Source: Thermoanaerobaculia bacterium (GTDB lineage: Bacteria; Acidobacteriota; Thermoanaerobaculia; Gp7-AA8). From it: a stretch of DNA of 64,000 nucleotides. The DNA is taken from the NCBI GenBank assembly GCA_036390755.1, contig DASWBH010000389.1, positions 7,269-71,268 of the forward strand, in the 5' to 3' direction. Below, piece after piece: positions 389 through 14,861 of the stretch (the first letter of the stretch is position 1; every line of letters begins with the position of its first letter). The position numbers and the translations under genes are program-made. The notes below the pieces were generated by a model. That model did not search any database and was not told the DNA's origin. It saw only the letters and a list, made by a program, of their open reading frames with translations.

Positions 389-401
389 ACCAGGAGGCTC
401 A

Positions 402-899
402 ATGCGCAGACTCGCAGTTCTAGGGATCTTCGCTGCGTTCGCTCTCACCGCGAGCGCGCAGAAGGTCATGATCCCGTCGCAGACGTCGAACCCGAACGTG
501 GTGCTGACGCCGGCGCAACCCCAGCAGAACGTCGACATGAACCTCGACAAAGCGCGCCGCATCTCGCGCGACGAGGCCATGAAGCTGGTCAAGGAGCACA
601 AGGCCGTCCTCGTCGACGTCCGCGGCAAAGAGGCGTACGACGCCGGCCACATCAAGGGAGCCGTCAGCATGCCGTGGAACGAGATCGTCTCCCGCGTGAA
701 GGAGCTCCCGCCGAGGAAGATGATCGTCACGTACTGTGCTTGACAGAACGAGCACACAAGCGCCCGTGCGGTGCTGGAACTCAATGCTCACGGAATCAAG
801 AACACGGCCGCGCTCCTCGGCGGCTGGAACCAGTGGACGGCTCTCGGACTGCCGACCGAAACGTCCTGGGACAAACAGGCCAAAGAGAAGAAGAAGTAG
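402..899 (+). CDS. Periplasmic single-domain rhodanese-like sulfurtransferase with an in-frame TGA at 741-743; candidate selenoprotein or pseudogene
   Basis: Signal peptide MRRLAVLGIFAAFALTASA, followed by a rhodanese fold (KAVLVDVR...GHIKGA..). The frame reaches IVTYCA-TGA and continues in the same frame as QNEHTSARAVLELNAHGIKNTAALLGGWNQWTALGLP up to TAG at 897-899. The TGA aligns with the catalytic Cys of the CX5(S/T) active-site loop (GlpE: C-YHGNS-S). Confidence 0.55.
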
Positions 900-956
900 A
901 TCGACGCGTCTCAAACGGTCCGAAAGGCAGGTCGCAAGGCCTGCCTTTTTTGTTAA

Positions 957-2306: not shown

Positions 2307-2735
2307 TTGACCATGGCCGAGGAGCGCGATGTCGTTGCCGGAGTGATCCAGCTCGGCAATCTGCTCGTGCGCCGGCTCGCTCCGCTGTTCGAGCACGCGA
2401 ACGTCACGCCGCAGCAGTGGGCGGTGCTCTCGGCGATCGGCGATCAGCCGACCAATCTGGCCGCTCTGGCGCGCAAGCTCGCGGTGTCGAAACAGAACAT
2501 GACCGGCATGATGGCGCGGCTCGAGCAGCTCGGGTTCATCGAGCGCTCCGAAAATCCGCAGGACCTCCGCGCATCGCGCGTTCAGCTCACGCGCCGCGGC
2601 CGCGCGCTGATCGAGAAGCTCCGCCCTGCGTACGAGGAGTGGAGGAAGACGCTCGGCCGCGCGTTGCCGGAGCGCGACCTGCAAACGCTCACGCGCGCGG
2701 TCAACCGCCTGATTGCGCAGCTCGAGGAACGATAG
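2307..2735 (+). CDS. MarR family transcriptional regulator
   Basis: 142-aa winged-helix MarR-like protein (..VTPQQWAVLSAIGDQP..LARKLAVSKQNMTGMMARLEQLGFIER..). Confidence 0.8.
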   Translation: MTMAEERDVVAGVIQLGNLLVRRLAPLFEHANVTPQQWAVLSAIGDQPTNLAALARKLAVSKQNMTGMMARLEQLGFIERSENPQDLRASRVQLTRRGRALIEKLRPAYEEWRKTLGRALPERDLQTLTRAVNRLIAQLEER

Positions 2736-3909
2736 GGCCGACGACCACACGGTTGCGTCCGAGACGCTTGGCTTCGTAGAGACGTTCGTCGGCGGTATGG
2801 AACAGCACGTCGGCGAGCTCGCCGTCGTCGGGGAAGATCGCCGCACCGATGCTGATCGTGACCTGCGTTCCGTCGGCCGCTGCGGGAAGCCCGGCGACGT
2901 TCGCGCGAATGCGTTCGGCGACGCGCGCGAGCGCTTCCGCGTCGGCGAGCGGGACGATCACCGCGAACTCCTCGCCGCCGTAACGCGCCGGGAAGTCGAC
3001 CGCGCGCACCGTCTCGCGGATCACCTGCGCGACGCGCTGAAGCGCCGCGTTCCCGGCGAGGTGCCCGAAGCGGTCGTTGTACATCTTGAATCGATCGAGA
3101 TCGAGGATGAGGACGCCGAAGCGCTCGGCGTATCGCATGGCGCGGGCGATCTCGACATCGCTCCGTTCGCGAAATGCCCGGAAGTTCGGGAGTCCGGTGA
3201 GGTCGTCGGTCCGGGCGCGTGCGTTGAGCTCGTCGGCCATGTGGTTGAAGGCAACGCCAAGCTTCGCGACGTCGAGGTCACCGCCCACCGGCGCACGCGC
3301 GGTCACGTCTCCGGCGGCGATCCTGTCCGCGGCTTCAGCAAGCTTCTCGATCGGACGGACCACGCGGTGGTGCGTGAGCGTGGCCAGCGCAAAGCTGAGG
3401 ATGACGATGATCCAGGCGACGCCGATGCCGGTCAGCATCATGCCGTTCGCGTCGTGCTCGAGGGTCGGGAGTTGCCGGGCGATCACGCTCTTGTGCGCCT
3501 CGATGAGGCGCTGAGCCTCGACCACGATGCGAACCGACTCGGCGTTGAGCTCGCCCTGCGGCGCGCGCGTAAGCAGCAGCATGCGATACGCGCGGACCCG
3601 CACGCGCAGGGCCGAAGTGTCGATGGATTGGACGGCGCGGGAGTCGAGGAGTTGCTCGACGGCGTCATAGCGGTCGACGGCGCTGGCGTCAGTTCCCTGC
3701 AGCTTTCCGCGAAATGCGTTCTGAGCGCGAATGAGCTCGTCGAGACGCCCGATCGCTTCGGTCTCGACCGAGATCAGGCGCGACCACCGCTCCTGCGACT
3801 GCCTGGCCCGCCAGCTCAGACCGAACGTGATCAGAAGGAGAGCGCACGCGAATGCGGCCGTCAGCCACGTCACCCGCGTTCGCAACCGGATCCTGGACAC
3901 TTGAAACAA
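2701..3909 (-). CDS. Membrane-anchored diguanylate cyclase (GGDEF domain)
   Basis: N-terminal TM helices and a C-terminal GGDEF domain with RYGGEEF and DRFKMYNDRFGHLAGN. Confidence 0.85.
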   Translation of the reverse strand: MFQVSRIRLRTRVTWLTAAFACALLLITFGLSWRARQSQERWSRLISVETEAIGRLDELIRAQNAFRGKLQGTDASAVDRYDAVEQLLDSRAVQSIDTSALRVRVRAYRMLLLTRAPQGELNAESVRIVVEAQRLIEAHKSVIARQLPTLEHDANGMMLTGIGVAWIIVILSFALATLTHHRVVRPIEKLAEAADRIAAGDVTARAPVGGDLDVAKLGVAFNHMADELNARARTDDLTGLPNFRAFRERSDVEIARAMRYAERFGVLILDLDRFKMYNDRFGHLAGNAALQRVAQVIRETVRAVDFPARYGGEEFAVIVPLADAEALARVAERIRANVAGLPAAADGTQVTISIGAAIFPDDGELADVLFHTADERLYEAKRLGRNRVVVGPIVPRAAQSGG

Positions 3910-5204: not shown

Positions 5205-8200
5205 ATGGACGAGAGCACACAGAACAGCCACACGCTGTTTCCGCACGAGACGGGTCCTGGACACCACCGCTCGGCACGCGAACGCCAGCGCCAGGGACCG
5301 ATGTGGGGCTGTCTCAAGGCGATCGTCATCGTCGGCGTCGTCGGCTTCGTCCTCCTCTTCCTCATCATCGGCGGCGGCTGGTGGTATCTCGGCTCGCGCA
5401 GTTTCGCGGACCTTGTCTCGCGACGGATCGCCGAGACGCTCAAGGCGCGCCTCGGCCGCGACGTCTCGATTGGACTCGTCACCATCGATCGCGAGCATCT
5501 GCGCCAGGTCGTTCTGAACGACGTCCGCATCGCCAACGCACCCGGCGCCCTGAATCCGTACTTCGCCACCGTCAAACAGGTCGTCATCACCGGCGGCGTC
5601 GATTCGTTCTGGGGACGGAAGATCAAAGTCGGCCGCATCGATGTGGTCGAGCCAAAACTCTGGTTCGAGATCTATCCGGCCGGCTCGACGCTCGTCCACA
5701 ACTTCCCGCGCTGGAACTCGGGGCCGCCCAGCCGTTACGAGATCGTCCACATCGAGATGGGCATGCTCTACGCGCGGAACGGCATGTTCACATTCCTCGA
5801 CCGCCGCCATCAGATCACCGCCGTCGCGACGAATCTCACCGCGCAGATGAAAGTCACCAGAGCCCAGGATTTGTATGCGGGGGTGGTGGTGAGCCCGCTG
5901 ATGACGGTGAGCATTCAGGACTACCTGCCCGTCAATGTCGATCTTCGCGGCGGATTCCGCTTCACGCCCGGCCGGCTCGAGCTGCAGTCGATCGCGATGA
6001 AAGGTCAGGGCATCCAGGCGTTCGTCTCCGGGAGCGTCGCGCCGCTGAGTGAAGCCGCATACAACCTGCGAGTGACTGCGCAGACGGATCTCGATCGCAT
6101 CCGCCAGATTTTCCGGGTCAACAAAACACTCCAGGGCGTCGTTGCCATCGACTCGCGTCTCGCCGGCAAAGCGGGCACGTTCACGCTCGACGGCGGCTGG
6201 GTGTCGGCCGACATCATCGCCGACGCGTACGAGCTGACGAAGGCAAAGGGACACCTGAACGTCACCGGCGACCGGACGATCGTCGACGTCGAATCGGCCC
6301 GCTACGGCGGCGGAACGATCGCTGCGCACTACATCCTCACCAAGTACGCGGAGCCGTATCCGATGAACGTCGAGCTACGCTACAAGGGCGTCTCGGTCGA
6401 GCAGCTCTTCAACGACTGGACAATTCGCGACACCGGATTGCGTGCGGGCGCCAGCGGAACGCTGACGTACCACTGGAACAAGGACAAGATCCTCGAAGGC
6501 GCCGGCAGCGGAACAGCGACGCTCGCGAAGAACGCCGTCGCGTTCTCCGGCGCGACGTATCCGATTCCCGTCGGCGGCTCGACCGACTTCGAGCTCGACA
6601 ACGGCGTCGTCACGTTCCGCCGCGCGGAGCTCGATACCGACGCGTCGCACATCAGCCTGACCGGCACGCTGCGCATCGCCGATGTCTACACGAACCTGCA
6701 GGCGAAGATTCACAGCTCGGATTTCAGCGAGCTCGATCGCGCCGGCTTCAACTTCGCCCACTCCGCTGGCAAGAAGACGTACACGCTCCTCGGCCTCGGC
6801 GGCGCCGGCGACATCACCGGCAGCGTGCGCGGAACGCTGAAGACGCCCGAAGTCGTCGCCCATGTCAGCGGCACCGGCACGAAGTACAACAACGTGCTCC
6901 TCGGCGCAGCGGACATCGATCTGCACTACGACGGAACGAAAAGCCTGCTGACGTTCGATCGCGCGATCTTCAGCGAAGCAGGCGGACGGCTCTCGCTCAC
7001 CGGCACGCTCGTGTTCCCCGATCGCGGACCGTCGCCGCAGTTCGACATCGCCGTCGACGCGACGAACTACCCGATCGACCGCGCGATGGCCGCGGTGAAT
7101 CTGAAGCTGAACGTCGGCGGCGGAGTGGGCACCGGGAAACTCATCGTGACCGGGACACCGGACGAGGGCAAAGTGACGTTCGTCAACATGACCGTCCAGC
7201 AGGGCGCATCGCAGCTGCGGCTCGCCGGCGACGTGAACTGGCTGCCGGGCAAAGGCAACGTCCGATTCAATCTCGACATCGCCGCGCGCGAGTTCCCGGT
7301 CAAGAGCATCCTCACGTTCCTCGACCTCGGCACGTTCCCTGTGACCGGCAATCTCACCGGCACGCTGCACCTCGAGGGGCCGAAGAGCGCGCTCCAGGGT
7401 GCCGGTGCGGTCACCGTTCGCAACGGCACGATCTACGGCGAGCCGGTGAACGCCGCCACCGCGGACATCAACTTCACGCAAGGCAAGCTGCGCGCAACGA
7501 ACATCAACGTCACCGCGCCGGCCGGGAACATCAAAGGCGAGGCGGAGCTGAACCTGACCACGAATCAGTTCAGCTACAACATCACGTCGAGCTCGATCGA
7601 CCTGTCGCGCATCACGCTGCTGCAATCGCTCAAGGGACTCCTCGGCGGCAACGTCGTGCTGACGTCGAGCGGCGGAGGCACGTTCGAGAATCCGGAGCTG
7701 GTCGTCGAGGCGACGCTCAACCAGACCACGCTGCGGGGGCTCAACTATCCCGCCGACGCGCCGCCGCCGTCGCTCTACATCGCCATCCGCGGCGGACGCC
7801 TCATCGTGCGCGGATCCGCCGCGAACGTGCTGACGATCGAAGGCGAGGGCGCAGTCGGTCAGGACATGACCGTCGACGGCACGGTGCGCGTGACGATCAC
7901 CGATATCGCGAAGGTCCTGGCGATGTCGCCGAACACCGCGACGATTCCCGCGGCGGGAAACGCCATCGTCGACCTGCACCTCGGCGGGAAGCTCACCTCA
8001 ATCGAGGCGCTGCGAATCGACGCGACCGTTCCTACGCTGAGCCTGCGCGTCTCCGAGCACGAGTTCACGCCGCGCGCGCCGCTGCGCATCGGCCTGCGCG
8101 ACGGCCGGGTCGTCTTCGACTCGTTCGATCTGCAGCGGACCGATTCCGTCTTCGCCGTCACCGGCTTCGCGGAAATTACGGGAGCGAAACGCCTCGGCGT

Positions 8201-11200
8201 CGATGTTCACGGCGACCTCGAAGCGGCGCTGCTGCAGCTGTTCATGAAAGACGTTCGCGCAGACGGCCACGTGGCGCTCGCGCTGTCGATCCGTGGAACG
8301 CTCGCGGCGCCCGCACTGCACGGCACCGCCGAGCTGCAGAACGCGCAGGTGAAGTTCGCCGGCTTCCCGCAGCTGATCGACAACATCAACGGCACGCTCG
8401 TCTTCAACGGCGAGCGCGTCGACATCGACTCGCTCCGCGCGATGGTCGGCGGCGGCACAGTCGTCGCGGGCGGTTTCGTCACCCTCGCCGGAATGACGCC
8501 GAGCCAGTTCGGAGTGACGCTGCAGGGAACGAACGTCTCGATCCGCTACTACGAAGGGCTGACGGTCGAAGGGACGTTCAACCTGCGCGTCGGCGGCGAT
8601 CTCGAGCGCATGACCGTGACCGGCGACGCGAACGTGACGCGCGCGCTCTACTTCAAGGACTTCAACTTCCAGCAGTCGCTGCTCAACGTCGTGCTGTCGC
8701 GCCGGGGAGTGACGCCGATCGTGGCGGCGTCGTGGCAGGATCGTGTGGGCCTTCGGCTTCACGTCGTCGCGCCGAACACGCTCGCGGTCCGGAACAACGT
8801 CGCGAACGTCACCGGCAGCGCTGAGGTCGATGTCACAGGCACCCTGGCGAATCCGGTCATCATCGGCGACGTCACGCTCAACGAAGGCGGCACGGTCACA
8901 TTCCAGAGTGTCGATTACCGTGTCATGCGCGGCACGATCAACTTCCAGAATCCGTTTCGCATCGATCCCTACTTCGACGTCACGCTCGAAGGCCGGGTCT
9001 CCGGCGGCATCTCGGAGATTGAGACGGGCCCGCTCGACGTCACCGTCAACATCACCGGCACGCTCGACCGCATTTCGCCGACGATCACGAGCGACCCCCC
9101 CGCCAGCGACATCACGTTGTTCTCCATCCTTGGCTTCGGCTCGCTGTCGCGCCAGGGCACCGGAACGGCCGGAGCGCAAAACATTCCGGGCGTCGGTCAG
9201 TCGCTGCTGATCCAGAGCCTCGCGTCCGCGCTCGGATCGCGCATCTTCCCGTTCGCTGACTCGTTCACCTACGACCCCGGCCAGCTCGACACGTCGCTCG
9301 GCGCGGGCCGCAAAGTCTCGTTCGAGAAACGTGTCTCGAACGCCGTGCGGCTGTTCGTCGTCTACAACCTCGATAACGCGAAGGCGCGCGAAGTTGTGGA
9401 GTGGGCGGCGAACCGCGACTGGACGATGCAGCTGACGAACGATCAGTCGGCGAACCAGTACCGCGTCGACGCCCGTTTCCGCAGGCTCTACGAAGGCCGC
9501 TGGTCCCTCGGCGGTCACGGACGCGGCGCCGAGATCTTTCCGCTCGCCTCGATCACGGCCGTGCTTTCGCCGACGACGATGACTCCGGCGGCACCCCCGC
9601 TTCCGACGACCGCAGTCGCCGGCGTTCCCACGGGTTCTCCCGTGACGAGCGTGCAGTTCCGGTTCGATAAGCCGCTGGCGACGACGACGCTCGCGCAGTA
9701 CGTCACGGTGAAAACCGGTCAGCCGCTTTCGCTGCGCGACGTGCAGAACACGATCAAGGCGCTGTTCGCCACCGGCAATTTCCGCGACGTTCGCGTCGAT
9801 GCGACACCCGCAGCGAACGGAGTTCAGGTCACCGTTTCGCTGTATCTCAACTATCGCGTCGGGAAGATCGTGTACGACGGGATCAGCGGCTCCGGGCGAA
9901 CCCGGGCGACGCGCGATCTTCGCGTCCACTCCGGCGACGTGCTCTCGCTCAACGCCCTCGACAACGGCGCGGCGTCGATTCAGGAAGAGCTGAACCGCGA
10001 CGGCTACCTCGAAGCTGCGGTCGATCCGGAGACGACATTCCTTCAGGACCGCAATATCGCCGACATCACGTTCCACGTGACGACCGGACCGCGTGCAAAG
10101 GTCGGCAGCGTGACCGTTGCCGGAAATCTCGCGCCGTTCTCGGAGCAGGAGCTGATCGGACGGATGAAGGAGAAGCCGGGTGCGATGTTCCGGCTGCTCG
10201 ACGCGCGATCCGACGCCGACCGGATGAAGAACTACGTCGTCCGGCGCGATTACCGGCGCGCAGACGTCGCCTTCGACTCCGATACGTACGACGCGGCGTC
10301 GAAGACCGTCGCGCTGCGCTATCACGCCACGATCGGACCGGTCGTGAAAGTCGAAGTCACCGGCGTGCCGCGCAGTGCGGTCCGCAAAGTCCTGCCGTTC
10401 GCGAGAAACCAGGAGTACAGCGAAGACGCCATCGACCGCGCCGCCGACAACATCGTCCAGCTCTATCAGGAGCGCGGCTACATCAACGCCGCGGTCGACA
10501 CGGAGAACCACCAGACCGACAACACGTGGGTGACCACGTTCAACGTGCGGCCGGGCCAGCGCTTTCACCTGACCGGGGTCACGTTCACGGGCAACATCAA
10601 AGTGTCGGACAAGAGCCTCGCGGCGCAGATTCAGACCGCGCCGAGCGGCGGGATCCGGAGCCTGCTTTCAACCATCTTCCGCCGCTCGACCGGCGTCACC
10701 CGGGCACAACTCAGCGCCGATCGGGACGCGATCGAGTCGTACTACCGAATGCAGGGATTCTCGATCGCGACGGTCGCCACTCCGGTCGCGAACACGCATC
10801 CGGACGGCACGTTGACGATCGACTTCCCCATCGACGAGGGGCCGCAGACGGTCGTGGCGGGGGTGATGATCGAAGGCACCGCGCAGGTCGATGCTGCGAA
10901 ACTGCCGCATCTGCAGGTCAAGCCCGGCGCACCGCTCAATCCGCAGCTCGTCCGCACCGACGTGCTCACGCTGCAATCGTTCTACGCCGATCGCGGCAAC
11001 GCCGAAGTGCAGATCACGCCGCGCATCGACGTGAGCGCCGACAAGACCGCGGCGCATGTGTCGTACGTGATCGCCGAAGGACCGCGCATCAAAGTCGACG
11101 AAGTGATCGTCCGCGGGAACACGTACACGGATTCGGATGTGATCCTGCGTCAGTCCGAGCTCGATAAGGGCGATCCGTTCAGCTACACGAACATCCTCGA

Positions 11201-12434
11201 GGCGCAGCGCAATCTCTATCGCCTCGGCATATTCAACCGCGTCGACATTCAGCCCGAGCAGGCCGGGACGTCGCTGGCTGAACGCAACATCCTCATTTCG
11301 GTCGAGGAGGGGAAGGACGTCACCGCGAGCGGATCGCTCGGTCTGCTGGCCGAAAGCGGCAGCCAGAATGGACATCGGATCGTCTCGCCGCGACTGGCCG
11401 GCGCTCTCGCCCATCGCAATCTCTTCGGCACGGGCCGGTATCTCGGGTTCGAGGGTGTCTACGCGCCCGGGACGGATCGCGAGGCATACCTGACTTATCG
11501 CGAGCCGTTCGTCGGGCGGCTGGACATCCCGGTGCAGGTCACCATCTTCCAGACCGACGACTTCACGCGGAAGGAGGCGCGCATCCAGCAGCGAGGAACG
11601 GCGATCGAAGCGTCGCGAGTGGTCTTCCTGCGCACGCGCTGGTCCGTGCAGTACCAGTACAAGATCTCCGACTGTAAAGAAGGGCTGATCTGCGCGTCGA
11701 TCAACAAGGATCCGAACGCGCCGGTCCTCGACCTGCCGCGCACGCTGCTGAACATCCAGATTTCGAGCGTCACGCCTACGTTCTTCTGGGATACGCGCGA
11801 CGACATCGTCGACCCGCACCATGGCTTCTTCACCAGCGCCTCAGCGACCTACGCGTTCCCGCTGTTCGCGGCGAAGAGCAACTTCACGAAGGAATTCGCG
11901 CAGGGCGCGTGGTATGTGCCGTTCACCACGCGAACGGTGCTCGCGCTGTCGGGGCGCCTCGGTCTCATTCAGCCGCGTGGCTTCGGCGACCAGCGAATCA
12001 TTCCGCTGTCGGAGCGTTTCCTCGGCGGCGGCGAGACTTCGCATCGCGCGTTCCCGCTCGATCTTCTCGGCGATCTCTGCACGGACCCGGATGAGACGCG
12101 CCGCGGCCGCACGTGCGTTCCGACGCTGGCCGATGTCGATCCCGATCCGAGGAAGGTTCGCCTTGCGCCGCTCGGCGGAAACGGACTGCTGATCGTCAAT
12201 GCCGAATACCGCTTCCCGATCTTCGGACCTGTCGGCGCAGCGGTGTTCACCGATGTCGGCAACGTGTTCGGCACGTCGACGATCCACTTCGACGACTTGC
12301 GCTACGGACTCGGTGTCGGTATGCGCTACATCTCGCCGGTCGGGCCGCTGCGCTTCGACGTCGGCTTCCCGATCATGCGCCGCACGTACGAGCGGCCGTT
12401 CTCGTTCTCGCTGTCGCTCGGCTACGCGTTCTAG
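5205..12434 (+). CDS. TamB/AsmA-like translocation-and-assembly-module protein fused in one ORF to a BamA/TamA-like Omp85 outer-membrane protein (POTRA repeats plus beta-barrel)
   Basis: N-terminal signal-anchor (LKAIVIVGVVGFVLLFLIIGGGWW). Then about 1400 aa of G/T/V/N-rich repeats typical of TamB, ending with a DUF490-like C-terminal motif (..VSFEKRVSNAVRLFVVYNL..VEWAANRDWTMQLTNDQSANQYRVDARFRRLYE). A Pro/Thr-rich linker follows, then POTRA-like repeats (VQFRFDKPLATTTLAQYVTVKTGQPLSLRDVQNTIKALFATGNFRDVRVD..). The C-terminus is an Omp85 barrel (..GNGLLIVNAEYRFPIFGPVGAAVFTDVGNVF.. and last residues LGYAF). No stop codon interrupts the frame. An alternative start lies at the internal Met (MWGCL..) near 5301. 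Confidence 0.85.
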   Translation: MDESTQNSHTLFPHETGPGHHRSARERQRQGPMWGCLKAIVIVGVVGFVLLFLIIGGGWWYLGSRSFADLVSRRIAETLKARLGRDVSIGLVTIDREHLRQVVLNDVRIANAPGALNPYFATVKQVVITGGVDSFWGRKIKVGRIDVVEPKLWFEIYPAGSTLVHNFPRWNSGPPSRYEIVHIEMGMLYARNGMFTFLDRRHQITAVATNLTAQMKVTRAQDLYAGVVVSPLMTVSIQDYLPVNVDLRGGFRFTPGRLELQSIAMKGQGIQAFVSGSVAPLSEAAYNLRVTAQTDLDRIRQIFRVNKTLQGVVAIDSRLAGKAGTFTLDGGWVSADIIADAYELTKAKGHLNVTGDRTIVDVESARYGGGTIAAHYILTKYAEPYPMNVELRYKGVSVEQLFNDWTIRDTGLRAGASGTLTYHWNKDKILEGAGSGTATLAKNAVAFSGATYPIPVGGSTDFELDNGVVTFRRAELDTDASHISLTGTLRIADVYTNLQAKIHSSDFSELDRAGFNFAHSAGKKTYTLLGLGGAGDITGSVRGTLKTPEVVAHVSGTGTKYNNVLLGAADIDLHYDGTKSLLTFDRAIFSEAGGRLSLTGTLVFPDRGPSPQFDIAVDATNYPIDRAMAAVNLKLNVGGGVGTGKLIVTGTPDEGKVTFVNMTVQQGASQLRLAGDVNWLPGKGNVRFNLDIAAREFPVKSILTFLDLGTFPVTGNLTGTLHLEGPKSALQGAGAVTVRNGTIYGEPVNAATADINFTQGKLRATNINVTAPAGNIKGEAELNLTTNQFSYNITSSSIDLSRITLLQSLKGLLGGNVVLTSSGGGTFENPELVVEATLNQTTLRGLNYPADAPPPSLYIAIRGGRLIVRGSAANVLTIEGEGAVGQDMTVDGTVRVTITDIAKVLAMSPNTATIPAAGNAIVDLHLGGKLTSIEALRIDATVPTLSLRVSEHEFTPRAPLRIGLRDGRVVFDSFDLQRTDSVFAVTGFAEITGAKRLGVDVHGDLEAALLQLFMKDVRADGHVALALSIRGTLAAPALHGTAELQNAQVKFAGFPQLIDNINGTLVFNGERVDIDSLRAMVGGGTVVAGGFVTLAGMTPSQFGVTLQGTNVSIRYYEGLTVEGTFNLRVGGDLERMTVTGDANVTRALYFKDFNFQQSLLNVVLSRRGVTPIVAASWQDRVGLRLHVVAPNTLAVRNNVANVTGSAEVDVTGTLANPVIIGDVTLNEGGTVTFQSVDYRVMRGTINFQNPFRIDPYFDVTLEGRVSGGISEIETGPLDVTVNITGTLDRISPTITSDPPASDITLFSILGFGSLSRQGTGTAGAQNIPGVGQSLLIQSLASALGSRIFPFADSFTYDPGQLDTSLGAGRKVSFEKRVSNAVRLFVVYNLDNAKAREVVEWAANRDWTMQLTNDQSANQYRVDARFRRLYEGRWSLGGHGRGAEIFPLASITAVLSPTTMTPAAPPLPTTAVAGVPTGSPVTSVQFRFDKPLATTTLAQYVTVKTGQPLSLRDVQNTIKALFATGNFRDVRVDATPAANGVQVTVSLYLNYRVGKIVYDGISGSGRTRATRDLRVHSGDVLSLNALDNGAASIQEELNRDGYLEAAVDPETTFLQDRNIADITFHVTTGPRAKVGSVTVAGNLAPFSEQELIGRMKEKPGAMFRLLDARSDADRMKNYVVRRDYRRADVAFDSDTYDAASKTVALRYHATIGPVVKVEVTGVPRSAVRKVLPFARNQEYSEDAIDRAADNIVQLYQERGYINAAVDTENHQTDNTWVTTFNVRPGQRFHLTGVTFTGNIKVSDKSLAAQIQTAPSGGIRSLLSTIFRRSTGVTRAQLSADRDAIESYYRMQGFSIATVATPVANTHPDGTLTIDFPIDEGPQTVVAGVMIEGTAQVDAAKLPHLQVKPGAPLNPQLVRTDVLTLQSFYADRGNAEVQITPRIDVSADKTAAHVSYVIAEGPRIKVDEVIVRGNTYTDSDVILRQSELDKGDPFSYTNILEAQRNLYRLGIFNRVDIQPEQAGTSLAERNILISVEEGKDVTASGSLGLLAESGSQNGHRIVSPRLAGALAHRNLFGTGRYLGFEGVYAPGTDREAYLTYREPFVGRLDIPVQVTIFQTDDFTRKEARIQQRGTAIEASRVVFLRTRWSVQYQYKISDCKEGLICASINKDPNAPVLDLPRTLLNIQISSVTPTFFWDTRDDIVDPHHGFFTSASATYAFPLFAAKSNFTKEFAQGAWYVPFTTRTVLALSGRLGLIQPRGFGDQRIIPLSERFLGGGETSHRAFPLDLLGDLCTDPDETRRGRTCVPTLADVDPDPRKVRLAPLGGNGLLIVNAEYRFPIFGPVGAAVFTDVGNVFGTSTIHFDDLRYGLGVGMRYISPVGPLRFDVGFPIMRRTYERPFSFSLSLGYAF

Positions 12435-12673
12435 AACGACGGCTGCACGCTGTCGGCCGCGGCCTGTGCGCGCTCGCTCTCGAGCCGGGCCACGCGAGCG
12501 CGCAGTTCACCGATCTCGTTGTGCAGCTTCGTGAGCTCGTCTTTGACCGCTTCGCGCGCCATCTCCTGCAGCTTCGCGTTGAGGCGCTGCATCTGCTCAG
12601 ACGAAAAAGTCGTCAGCCGGTTGAACGGCTCGCCAAAGATCTCGCGGAGGAACTGCTCGAAGTCCTGAGCCAT
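12431..12673 (-). CDS. Small coiled-coil hypothetical protein (80 aa)
   Basis: MAQDFEQFLREIFGEPF...LQEMAREAVKDELTKLHNEIGELRARVARLESERAQAA. Its stop codon overlaps the stop codon of the giant + strand gene (cTAg). There is no homology anchor. Confidence 0.35.
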   Translation of the reverse strand: MAQDFEQFLREIFGEPFNRLTTFSSEQMQRLNAKLQEMAREAVKDELTKLHNEIGELRARVARLESERAQAAADSVQPSF

Positions 12674-12710
12674 GATGCCGAACACGGCAGCAAGCAGAAT
12701 GCCTGAACGA

Positions 12711-14861
12711 CTAACCGTGTGGTTTCTGATCCGGCTTCCCTTGCGGATTCTCCGGCGCCTTTGCCTCTTCGTCGACGCGCTTGCCGGTCGAAGTGTCGAA
12801 TACGGCATTGCGCAGGAACGATTCGGTCGTCCACGGCGCCCCTCCACCACCCACGTACTTGTGGAACCACTCCAGATGCGCCGTGTAGTACAGCGCCATC
12901 TCGTACCAGTTCGGCCAGTGTCCCGACTCGGAGAAGACGATCAGGCGCGACGGCACGCCCATCTTCTGCAGCGACGTGAACATCTGCAGCCCCTGCGTGT
13001 ATGGAACGCGGAAGTCGAGCTCGCCCGTCAGCACCATGCACGGCGTCTTGAAGTTCTGTACGTAATTCGACGGCGACCACTTCTGGTACAGCTCCGAATT
13101 CCAGGGCTGTCCCTTCAGGTCCCACTCCGGAAACCACAGCTCCTCGGTCGCGCCATAGAACGACCGCAGATCGAAGAGGCCCATCATCGACGCGATCGCC
13201 TTGAATCGCGTGGTGTGTCCTTCGAACCAGTTCATCATGTAGCCGCCGTACGACCATCCCATCGCGGCCATCCGGTCGCGATCGACATACGGAAGCTTCT
13301 CCAGAGCGTCGGTGACGAGCATGAGGTCGTCGAACGGCTTCCCGCCCCAGTCGCCGGAGATCTCGGCCGTGAACTCCTGGCCGAAGCCGGTCGAGCCGTG
13401 CGGATTCGGGAACGCGACTACGTAACCGGCGCCCGGATAGACCTGCCAGTCGCCGCGGAACGAATCGGCCCATAGCGACTGCGGTCCGCCGTGCACGTTC
13501 AGAATCAACGGGTACTTCCTGTTCGGATCGAAGTCGTGCGGCTTGACGATGAAGACCTGGATCCGCGCGCCGTCCGTTCCGGTCACCCACATCACCTCGG
13601 CGGGCCGGATGTCGACTTCGTTCACGATCGCGTCGTTCAGATGCGAGATGCGGCTGCGCGCCGGCGTCGTCGTGAAATCGGAGCGGTAGACCTCGCTCGG
13701 CTCGCCGACCGAGCGGCCGATGTAGTAGATCGTTCGGCCGCCGCCGGCGATCCGGAATGCGTCGACGGTGCGATCGGAGAACACGCGCGTGCTCGTGCCG
13801 GTCGCGACGTCGACCCTGAAGAATGGATTGATGCCTTCGACCGCTCCGGTGAAGTAGATCGTTCGCGAGTCGTCGCTCCAGTCGAAGTCGTCGATCCAGT
13901 TGTTGAAGCCGGGCGTGACGATGCGCGACGTGCCCGCGCGCCGGTCGTACACGGCCAGCTGAAAGAGGCTCGACTCGTATCCGGGATCGCGCTGCCGCCG
14001 GTAGGCGATGTAGCGCCCGTCCGGCGAGTATTTCGGACTGCCGTCGAATGCCTTGTTGTCGGCCGTGATATCGCGCGGGGTGCCGGGATTGGTTACCGAG
14101 ATCAGATACAGATCGTTGTTGGTCGACGCCGCCGGGACCGGATCGGGATTTCCCGCGACCGCCAGCTCGGATCCATCAGGTGAAAAGTCGTATTGCAGAG
14201 GTCCTCCGAGCTGGAACGGCGGGAAGTCTTTCGATCCGGGAGTGAGATCGCGCGTCCTGCCGCTGTCGACTTCGACGATCCAGGTGTGCGTCACGGTCCC
14301 GTCTTTCCATGACTTCCAGTGACGATAGAGGAGCTGATCGGCTGTGTGCGCCTTCAGCTTCCCGTTGTTCCAGCGATCGGCAACGCGCTTGTTGCACGCG
14401 TCGTCGCCGTTGCACTCCGGATAGACGTCGGTCGAGAACGCGATCCGCTTTCCGTCGGGCGACCAGACCGGATCGGAGACACCGGTCGAGATGTTCGTCA
14501 GCTCGCGCGGCTCGCCGCCGCCGAGGGGCAGCAGATACAGATTTCCGAGGCCGTCCTTCGTGCGGACGAACGAGAGATACCGGTTGTCGGGCGAAAAGCC
14601 GGGCGATGAATCGAGATCGCCCGACGTGACCTGATGCGGATCGCTGCCGTCGGCTCCGGCCATCCAGATGCGCGTCGTGCGTTTGCCGTGCGGCAGATCG
14701 GTCGTGGCGACGGTGAACGCGACGCGGCGCTCGTCGTGCGAAAGCGCGAGCTCGGTCACTGAGCGGAGGCGGTAGAGGTCCTCGATCGTGAACGCGCGTT
14801 TCTGCGCGAACAGCGGCAGCGCGACGAGGAGAAGGGCGGCAGACAGAGCGAGTTTTCTCAT
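12711..14861 (-). CDS. S9 family serine peptidase (prolyl oligopeptidase / acylaminoacyl-peptidase type) with N-terminal beta-propeller; secreted
   Basis: Signal peptide MRKLALSAALLLVALPLFAQ. TolB/WD40-like propeller repeats (SPDG.., SPDGK..). C-terminal alpha/beta hydrolase with GWSYGGY (catalytic Ser) and ESGHW. Confidence 0.85.
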   Translation of the reverse strand: MRKLALSAALLLVALPLFAQKRAFTIEDLYRLRSVTELALSHDERRVAFTVATTDLPHGKRTTRIWMAGADGSDPHQVTSGDLDSSPGFSPDNRYLSFVRTKDGLGNLYLLPLGGGEPRELTNISTGVSDPVWSPDGKRIAFSTDVYPECNGDDACNKRVADRWNNGKLKAHTADQLLYRHWKSWKDGTVTHTWIVEVDSGRTRDLTPGSKDFPPFQLGGPLQYDFSPDGSELAVAGNPDPVPAASTNNDLYLISVTNPGTPRDITADNKAFDGSPKYSPDGRYIAYRRQRDPGYESSLFQLAVYDRRAGTSRIVTPGFNNWIDDFDWSDDSRTIYFTGAVEGINPFFRVDVATGTSTRVFSDRTVDAFRIAGGGRTIYYIGRSVGEPSEVYRSDFTTTPARSRISHLNDAIVNEVDIRPAEVMWVTGTDGARIQVFIVKPHDFDPNRKYPLILNVHGGPQSLWADSFRGDWQVYPGAGYVVAFPNPHGSTGFGQEFTAEISGDWGGKPFDDLMLVTDALEKLPYVDRDRMAAMGWSYGGYMMNWFEGHTTRFKAIASMMGLFDLRSFYGATEELWFPEWDLKGQPWNSELYQKWSPSNYVQNFKTPCMVLTGELDFRVPYTQGLQMFTSLQKMGVPSRLIVFSESGHWPNWYEMALYYTAHLEWFHKYVGGGGAPWTTESFLRNAVFDTSTGKRVDEEAKAPENPQGKPDQKPHG

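Follow-up and report, generated by a model that had tools for sequence, protein, structure and literature searches.

A widespread, probably exported rhodanese of Acidobacteriota with an in-frame UGA codon, very likely a selenoprotein

The subject of this study is a gene at positions 402–899 of the window, by which we mean the whole stretch of DNA that was analysed, 64,000 nt long and 64% GC, from a Thermoanaerobaculia bacterium. The reading frame of this gene, which runs from the ATG at 402 as MRRLAVLGIFAAFALTASAQK...IVTYCA, meets a TGA codon at 741–743 and then continues in the same frame as QNEHTSARAVLELNAHGIKNTAALLGGWNQWTALGLPTETSWDKQAKEKKK, 51 sense codons that end at a TAG at 897–899. Comparison with relatives from other Acidobacteriota leads us to conclude that this is very likely one complete gene for an exported protein of the rhodanese family with a selenocysteine (Sec) codon at position 114, that is, a real selenoprotein gene. 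The current record, HEX9163318.1, an exact match in a protein search that GenBank holds under a Thermoanaerobaculia metagenome-assembled genome as a 113-residue "rhodanese-like domain-containing protein", is almost certainly a mis-annotation that presents the product in truncated form. That selenium is actually incorporated at codon 114 is something we infer from the comparative evidence described below.

The original prediction, made from the letters of the window alone, had recognized the continuation of the frame as the C-terminal half of a rhodanese and had pointed to a Cys two residues upstream of the TGA, and both observations stand. Pfam PF00581 recognizes in the read-through product one uninterrupted domain (65 bits against a cut-off of 22.2, E 9e-18), which crosses codon 114, and the Cys is residue 112. 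The elements of the gene on which the argument draws are the following:

392–397, plus strand: Shine–Dalgarno-like AGGAGG, 4 nt 5′ of the ATG, read directly in the sequence.
402–899, plus strand: predicted complete selenoprotein coding sequence, 165 codons, with Sec as codon 114, plus the TAG stop.
567–842, plus strand: rhodanese homology domain (Pfam PF00581), residues 56–147, running across the TGA.
735–737, plus strand: TGT codon of Cys112, the first residue of the C-x-U motif (U being Sec), nearly invariant in the family.
741–743, plus strand: UGA, proposed to be read as Sec (residue 114) from the alternation of TGA and Cys codons in this column and the Cys found in full-length homologues.
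922–949, plus strand: intrinsic-terminator-like hairpin with a T-tail, 23 nt past the TAG.

The first line of evidence comes from the same codon in relatives. One genome was taken per GTDB species, which gave 80 loci, all from Acidobacteriota (Thermoanaerobaculia and Pyrinomonadaceae/Blastocatellia), and the codon in this column was read in the DNA of each of the 96 gene copies found in these genomes and the window. It is TGA in 87 copies, TGC in eight and TGT in one, and in no copy is it TAA or TAG; a regular-expression search had returned 84, eight and one, respectively, and the hairpin scan described below recovered a further three TGA copies. The window's gene is thus accompanied by 86 others, from other genomes, with TGA in the same place, and the true terminators of 84 such genes are mixed (TAA in 37, TAG in 28 and TGA in 19). 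At the protein level, a search returned dozens of homologues of 40–70% identity that all end in ...TYC(A/S), together with full-length homologues that read ...TYC(A/S)C-x-x-E-(H/Q)-(T/S)..., with Cys in the Sec column. One of the Cys copies, in locus L019, is a positional orthologue, having TGC in the same lepB–rhodanese–eno–marR context as the window. Relatives might instead have proved to terminate at the same point, a possibility raised in the original prediction, and they do not, the column being either TGA or Cys and never one of the other two stops.

Several genomes carry two copies in tandem, 500–850 bp apart, in which a Sec copy is accompanied either by a Cys copy (L021, L022, L024 and L026) or by a second Sec copy (L030, L032, L038, L039, L045, L049, L050, L051, L053, L059 and L074). 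In Thermoanaerobaculia the pair consists of a TGA copy and a Cys copy; in Pyrinomonadaceae it is often two TGA copies.

The second line of evidence is a small RNA hairpin just past the UGA, which has the properties of a bacterial selenocysteine insertion sequence (SECIS):

759–775, plus strand: SECIS-like hairpin, stem 759/760–764 with 770–774/775, loop 765–769 (CGUGC).

The core of this hairpin, in which GCGCC at 760–764 pairs with GGUGC at 770–774, starts 16 nt past the UGA. When 81 distinct sequences were folded together with RNAalifold a single helix emerged, between alignment columns 23–27 and 33–37, in which 99.8% of cells are paired, as against 25–65% in registers slid by one to three columns. 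Pair 23–37 shows a compensatory swap, with 57 sequences having G-C and 22 having C-G; for this double change Ser has to pass from one codon family to the other (AGC to UCC) and the partner codon has to change as well. Pair 25–35 is G-U in 69 sequences and G-C in 11. Synonymous sites are nearly frozen across the element: the third-position entropies of the five consecutive codons from nt +19 to +33 are 0.17, 0, 0.33, 0 and 0 bits, as against 1.2–1.9 bits at similar four-fold sites in the rest of the gene. In the loop, position 2 is G in all 84 TGA copies considered and position 3 is U in 79 of them. The window itself adds an A759–U775 pair, giving a 6-bp stem with a folding energy of −8.7 kcal/mol; beyond it, only some half of the sequences form three more outer pairs (about 55% paired).

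These features can be set against the published bacterial SECIS (bSECIS) model which, as laid out in PMC13188914, has a loop of 3–9 nt, a stem of 4–16 bp, 16–37 nt between UGA and loop, a minimum free energy of −7.5 kcal/mol or lower, and a G within the first two positions of the loop, the next base usually being G or U. The hairpin agrees with the model on every count, with its 5-nt loop, stem of 5–6 bp, G then U in the loop, 21 nt from UGA to loop and −8.7 kcal/mol, so that the conserved SECIS-like structure for which the original prediction had called is present, at 760–764/770–774. It also follows the UGA closely in its distribution: all five pairs form in 83 of 84 TGA copies versus three of nine Cys copies, of which only one keeps the loop motif. 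Among 5,170 TGAs that lie in frames open on both sides, collected from 1.29 Mb of Acidobacteriota DNA, the hairpin stands behind 82, and 81 of these are this rhodanese gene, always with a spacing of exactly 16 nt, the remaining hit being an off-frame chance match. Two Cys copies bear what look, from their sequences, like fossil SECIS elements left by recent Sec-to-Cys conversions, with the complete helix kept in L019 (TGC at 2724) and the Sec-type loop CGUGC in L046 (TGC at 10196).

Three other foldings were considered and set aside. The hairpin originally put forward, AGCAC at 751–755 with GTGCT at 771–775, is complementary and begins 7 nt past the UGA as described, and its 3′ arm is shared with the real hairpin; as a conserved SECIS it fails, as only 77% of cells are paired, no compensatory change occurs and pair 15–37 forms in 33 of 80 sequences. 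A register of columns 23–26 with 31–34 (80% paired) has no covariation, and a lower stem at 750–754/785–789, taken from the minimum-free-energy fold, is 33% paired across the family and would be clade-specific at most.

The third line of evidence concerns the machinery that would read such a signal. In bacteria, SelB, the elongation factor specific for Sec, arrives with its Sec-tRNA(Sec) and is tethered at the ribosome by the SECIS hairpin. Relatives were sampled at about 20 kb per genome, and in three of them, L007 (a complete chromosome of 6.6 Mb), L008 and L009, a full-length SelB homologue, detected by tblastn with the E. coli protein as query, lies some 2 kb downstream of the TGA-containing rhodanese. 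The L007 gene, at 12388–14274, is a bona fide selB (TIGR00475, 350.6 bits against a cut-off of 242.25), and the contig of L014 probably carries SelB too. A search with the L007 SelB returned at least 8000 relatives at E <= 1e-50; among those listed, the named matches are selenocysteine-specific elongation factors, several of them from Thermoanaerobaculia. Use of Sec has been recorded in Acidobacteriota before (PMC12013277; PMC13582414). The selB genes of L008 and L009 lie at about 12400–14290, and in all three of L007–L009 tmk and holB stand between the rhodanese and selB, with no selA adjacent. Searches for the other components gave no tRNA-Sec in the window or in L001–L080, and no true match to E. 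coli SelA or SelD in the window or the sampled DNA of relatives, a weak SelD-like match in L038 being PurM.

A number of observations weigh against the selenoprotein interpretation and should be read together. The window holds no homologue of selA, selB or selD and no tRNA-Sec, nor indeed any tRNA or Rfam hit, so the Sec competence of this genome is deduced from its relatives, and none of the Pyrinomonadaceae loci showed Sec machinery at the sampling depth given above. The hairpin is short, and it has no Rfam match at either gathering or permissive thresholds. Its folding energy is unexceptional for DNA of 64% GC, with z-scores of −0.2 to −1.0 for segments of 23–60 nt and −2.9 for the 19-mer. 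As the folding energy alone is insignificant and Rfam offers no match, the argument for a SECIS rests on the comparative evidence, and within it a full compensatory swap is confined to a single pair, where few evolutionary events probably account for it, and the helix is retained in three of the nine Cys copies. The signal peptide is a heuristic prediction.

It is on the side of decoding that the best-surviving alternative arises, namely that UGA is read through as something other than Sec, either as near-cognate Trp or Cys or under a reassigned code. The absence of demonstrated Sec machinery from the window's own genome would suit this account, as would the 'W' that products from the Joint Genome Institute (JGI) show at this position; yet that 'W' is TGA in the DNA, followed by the same hairpin (verified on DNA for P0005), and no copy that was read has TGG in the column, where the only sense codons are TGC and TGT. 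TGA is moreover the commonest stop in the window, where it ends 27 of the 49 predicted genes, which excludes a reassigned code, and no other gene of the window has an in-frame TGA. Given also a SelB-type hairpin at a fixed spacing and SelB in relatives, we regard non-Sec read-through as very unlikely.

The JGI calls that render the Sec TGA as Trp include L083 186–677 (Ga0683369_0432638), P0040, P0041, P0044, P0047, P0268 and P0294. In public protein sets the family consequently occurs in two forms, either truncated or at full length with a spurious W.

The remaining alternatives all suppose that no functional read-through product exists, and it is the DNA downstream of the TGA that decides them. 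In every copy the frame stays open past the TGA for 39–84 codons. Across 83 distinct sequences the 30 codons that precede the TGA have entropies of 1.01, 0.74 and 1.42 bits at their three positions, and codons +13 to +37 beyond it have 0.75, 0.55 and 1.51 bits; this dominance of the third position on either side is, at the level of sequence, the mark of purifying selection on the protein. A codon-usage scan of all six frames of the window identified position 741 as the sole in-frame TGA with coding-type usage on both sides (score 0.35 before and 0.39 after), and a scan for other selenoprotein genes in the window found none. The coding-type entropy downstream, together with the terminator beyond the TAG, thus effectively excludes a genuine stop, a pseudogene and a sequencing error alike.

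Taken singly, the first of these would make the TGA an ordinary stop that ends a 113-residue half-domain, with the downstream part translated separately or not at all, a reading to which the frequency of TGA stops in the window and a GTG-initiated open reading frame (ORF) of 42 codons at 771–899 lend some colour. Against it, coding constraint runs through the TGA in a single frame without a break and extends over codons +1 to +9, which lie 5′ of GTG 771 and are likewise conserved as xxEH(T/S)SA; the column alternates with Cys and nothing else; the terminator lies past 899, and inspection of the sequence behind TGA 741 revealed no terminator-like site of comparable kind. A domain cut there would, judging by the structural model, end past its fourth strand and lose the active-site loop and two helices, and we consider a genuine stop very unlikely indeed. 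A nonsense-mutated pseudogene, in which a Cys codon changed to TGA in this lineage, would need only one base change from TGC or TGT and would match the 113-residue GenBank fragment, and is extremely unlikely when the same TGA recurs across two Acidobacteriota classes at 40–70% protein identity, followed by open codons under purifying selection and a conserved hairpin, with neither TAA nor TAG ever replacing it. An error for TGC or TGT, conceivable in a short-read metagenome assembly such as the one behind the window, has a near-negligible probability, the TGA being present in independent assemblies of many projects, among them the long-read complete chromosomes OY970284.1 (L007) and OY969111.1 (L050), and an error bringing with it neither an RNA hairpin nor frozen synonymous sites. 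The preference for a Sec rhodanese over a pseudogene or a sequencing error, as originally proposed, is therefore strongly supported by the comparative evidence.

Turning to the protein, we asked which of the two residues, C112 or U114, corresponds to the catalytic Cys of other rhodaneses. The AlphaFold (AF2) model of P0002, a Cys homologue that is 61% identical, has a predicted local distance difference test score above 90 over the domain, with a low-confidence linker before it, and the top Foldseek matches in the PDB are all rhodanese domains (3tp9, 6mxv, 3fnj, 3ilm and 1yt8, with lp_1913, BH2092 and Alr3790 among them). In this model the strand MLITY is followed by C-A-C-V-E-E and then a helix, and the loop from strand to helix, which is two residues longer than the C-YHGNS loop of GlpE, houses both C112 and U114. 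These two residues, two apart in one active-site loop, form by homology a C-x-U motif. In an alignment to the GlpE profile (hhalign, 97% probability), inserting "C-A" or "A-U" scores equally, which means that sequence cannot tell which residue is the canonical nucleophile; the pairing that hhalign reports is of C112 with Cys65 of GlpE. Pairwise matches found by phmmer also divide, U114 pairing without gaps with the catalytic Cys of 6mxv, and C112 with the catalytic Cys of 1yt8 and 3tp9.

On balance we lean, slightly, towards C112 as the canonical position, and Cys112 is thus probably the canonical rhodanese Cys, because "(I/V)-T-Y-C" fits the usual strand end of hydrophobic residue, aromatic residue and Cys, because the sole distant homologues with a single Cys (P0083 and P0084) retain the first one (LVYCHTDPPST), and because, as a lead, the few variants without both residues carry Asp at 112 (TYDAA, TYDSS). 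Inactive rhodanese modules usually carry Asp as the substitute. The original placement of the TGA at the catalytic Cys itself was accordingly over-specific, given a loop that is two residues longer and a competing C112. Multi-domain rhodanese repeats dominated the results of a profile search against 1.84 billion representatives, and the combination of a C-x-C loop with a predicted signal peptide shows as the hallmark of this family. In a small branch of the family both redox residues have gone together (P0024, P0035 and P0244, with TYDAA, TYDSS or TYDAS) and the rest of the loop, EH(T/I)SAR, is kept; to judge by their sequences, the members of this branch are probably paralogues that lack catalytic activity or have another function.

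The N-terminus of the protein suggests export, as had been noted originally:

402–458, plus strand: predicted Sec-type signal peptide, residues 1–19, MRRLAVLGIFAAFALTASA, with cleavage after A-S-A (heuristic call).

The segment, MRRLAVLGIFAAFALTASA|QK, combines a charged n-region with a hydrophobic core (Kyte–Doolittle mean over 10–11 residues of up to 2.7) and the A-S-A site. By the same heuristic, a hydrophobic segment is present at the N-terminus of 73 of the 74 family members for which that end is complete, and of these 74 an A-x-A-type site, resembling that of signal peptidase I, is present in 57 and a lipobox in at least 12. The lipobox form is that of Pyrinomonadaceae, the window's clade having the signal peptide. 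Since relatives do not share the RR of the window protein, the Sec secretion pathway is likelier than Tat.

Together, these observations suggest the following sequence of events, of which the cis elements and the SelB of relatives are observed and the remainder is drawn from the established bacterial mechanism. As the ribosome meets the UGA at 741–743, SelB with Sec-tRNA(Sec) would bind the hairpin at 760–774 and Sec would be inserted. The 165-residue precursor would then be exported by the Sec pathway and cut after A-S-A, releasing a mature protein of about 146 residues whose Cys112/Sec114 pair, to go by family and motif, could carry out sulfane-sulfur transfer or thiol/selenol redox reactions in the periplasm. 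Within this pair the selenol and the neighbouring thiol may be jointly active, by selenenylsulfide or (seleno)persulfide chemistry. By analogy with the rest of the family, a periplasmic role in sulfur transfer or redox is the most likely one.

A possible partner comes from gene neighbourhoods. A molybdoenzyme of the sulfite-oxidase family is encoded no more than 4 kb from the Sec-rhodanese in 11 loci (L006–L009, L012–L014, L023, L026, L028 and L070); the one in L007, at 8004–9137, is SorA-like (PF00174 and PF03404, 290 bits against a cut-off of 600), and the neighbourhood of the window's rhodanese has no SorA-like gene. Sulfite is both the product of thiosulfate sulfurtransferase activity and the substrate of the sulfite-oxidase family, and a link between the two proteins in periplasmic sulfite/thiosulfate oxidation is a speculative suggestion. 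The fuller proposal, of a distinct exported subfamily, periplasmic or lipid-anchored and overlooked as selenoproteins by present pipelines, in which Sec is near-obligatory (87 Sec to 9 Cys copies) and serves as a second redox residue in place of the canonical nucleophile's role, with a SorA-like partner in the periplasm and a role in thiosulfate/sulfite oxidation in soil bacteria, is as a whole doubtful, and we offer it tentatively.

In the window the rhodanese gene is flanked by the 3′ end of a signal peptidase I gene upstream (2–388) and by an enolase gene downstream (969–2243). Signal peptidase I (lepB) directly adjoins the rhodanese in 18 loci, the window's included, mostly upstream and co-directional and sometimes convergent. 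Elsewhere in the window, a single ORF of 2409 residues at 5205–12434 on the plus strand has a TamB region (residues 1077–1418), POTRA repeats (about 1719–2036) and a C-terminal Omp85 barrel (2072–2409), so that TamB-like and TamA/BamA-like parts, which are normally separate, appear from the sequence to be fused in one polypeptide. The predicted MarR-family gene and the HAMP-GGDEF diguanylate cyclase gene, which between them occupy 2307–2735 (plus strand) and 2701–3909 (minus strand), have convergent 3′ ends with an overlap of about 35 nt that may be an artefact of start or stop calling.

The implications lie less in a new category than in reach, as CxU rhodanese selenoproteins and exported bacterial selenoproteins have both been catalogued already. 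The annotation would need correction for the window protein and for dozens of relatives recorded as "rhodanese-like" fragments of about 110 residues, and a whole clade is missed by NF041203, the curated selenoprotein model. If the reading proposed here is right, a very widespread exported selenoprotein is added to two abundant classes of soil Acidobacteriota, implying a selenium requirement for periplasmic sulfur or redox chemistry in those classes. The tandem Sec and Cys paralogues, the syntenic Cys orthologue and the minimal SECIS would also provide a natural Sec/Cys series for studying Sec preference.

It remains to place the protein among known systems. Selenoproteins of the rhodanese family were, as the original prediction noted, predicted in bacteria earlier, in a survey of the Sargasso Sea (PMC1088965), and the CxU type is listed as form 3, NF041203, in PMC13188914 and as "COG0607 form 2, CxU" in PMC9312934, with credit to Zhang & Gladyshev 2005. 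NF041203 (rhodanese_LYCAU, "rhodanese-related (seleno)protein") is also the best NCBIfam match of the window protein, at 86 bits (E 1.6e-24, computed with U replaced by C), the next family scoring 51. The two share a single rhodanese domain whose central strand ends with an aromatic residue and then a conserved Cys, Sec lying two positions further on (xYCAU, T-Y-C-A-U in the window). They differ in that 86 bits falls short of the curated equivalog cut-off, which is 115, as do the scores of ten diverse relatives of the window protein (63–81 bits), and from these scores the Acidobacteriota 'TYC(A/S)(C/U)xxEH(T/S)' clade is best described as a sub-threshold sister group of NF041203. The find is thus less novel than first implied, the CxU family having been catalogued, with a clade outside the cut-off as its new part.

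GlpE and PspE of E. coli, which are single-domain thiosulfate sulfurtransferases, have the same fold and size, and PspE is also periplasmic, being exported by a signal peptide; both, however, have one catalytic Cys in a 6-residue loop, compared with Cys and Sec in an 8-residue loop in the window protein, and their equivalog cut-offs are far from reached (NF001195 GlpE, 37 versus 102 bits; NF007627 PspE, 25 versus 102). Among the other rhodanese selenoproteins, which in PMC13188914 comprise forms 1, 2 and 4 (UxxS, UxxG) and TsoB, a rhodanese/DsbD fusion with UxxxxU, Sec likewise lies in or near the active-site loop, whereas motif and architecture differ (TsoB, 28 versus 805 bits). Known or predicted exported selenoproteins catalogued in the same source include DsbA-like, thiol:disulfide interchange, TonB-dependent receptor and outer-membrane or multihaem cytochrome families. 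Finally, the RNA element resembles the E. coli fdhF-type SECIS in being a hairpin within the coding sequence, just past the UGA, whose small apical loop has G-U, and differs from it in a much shorter conserved part (5–6 bp), variable outer pairs and a fixed stem spacing of 16 nt.

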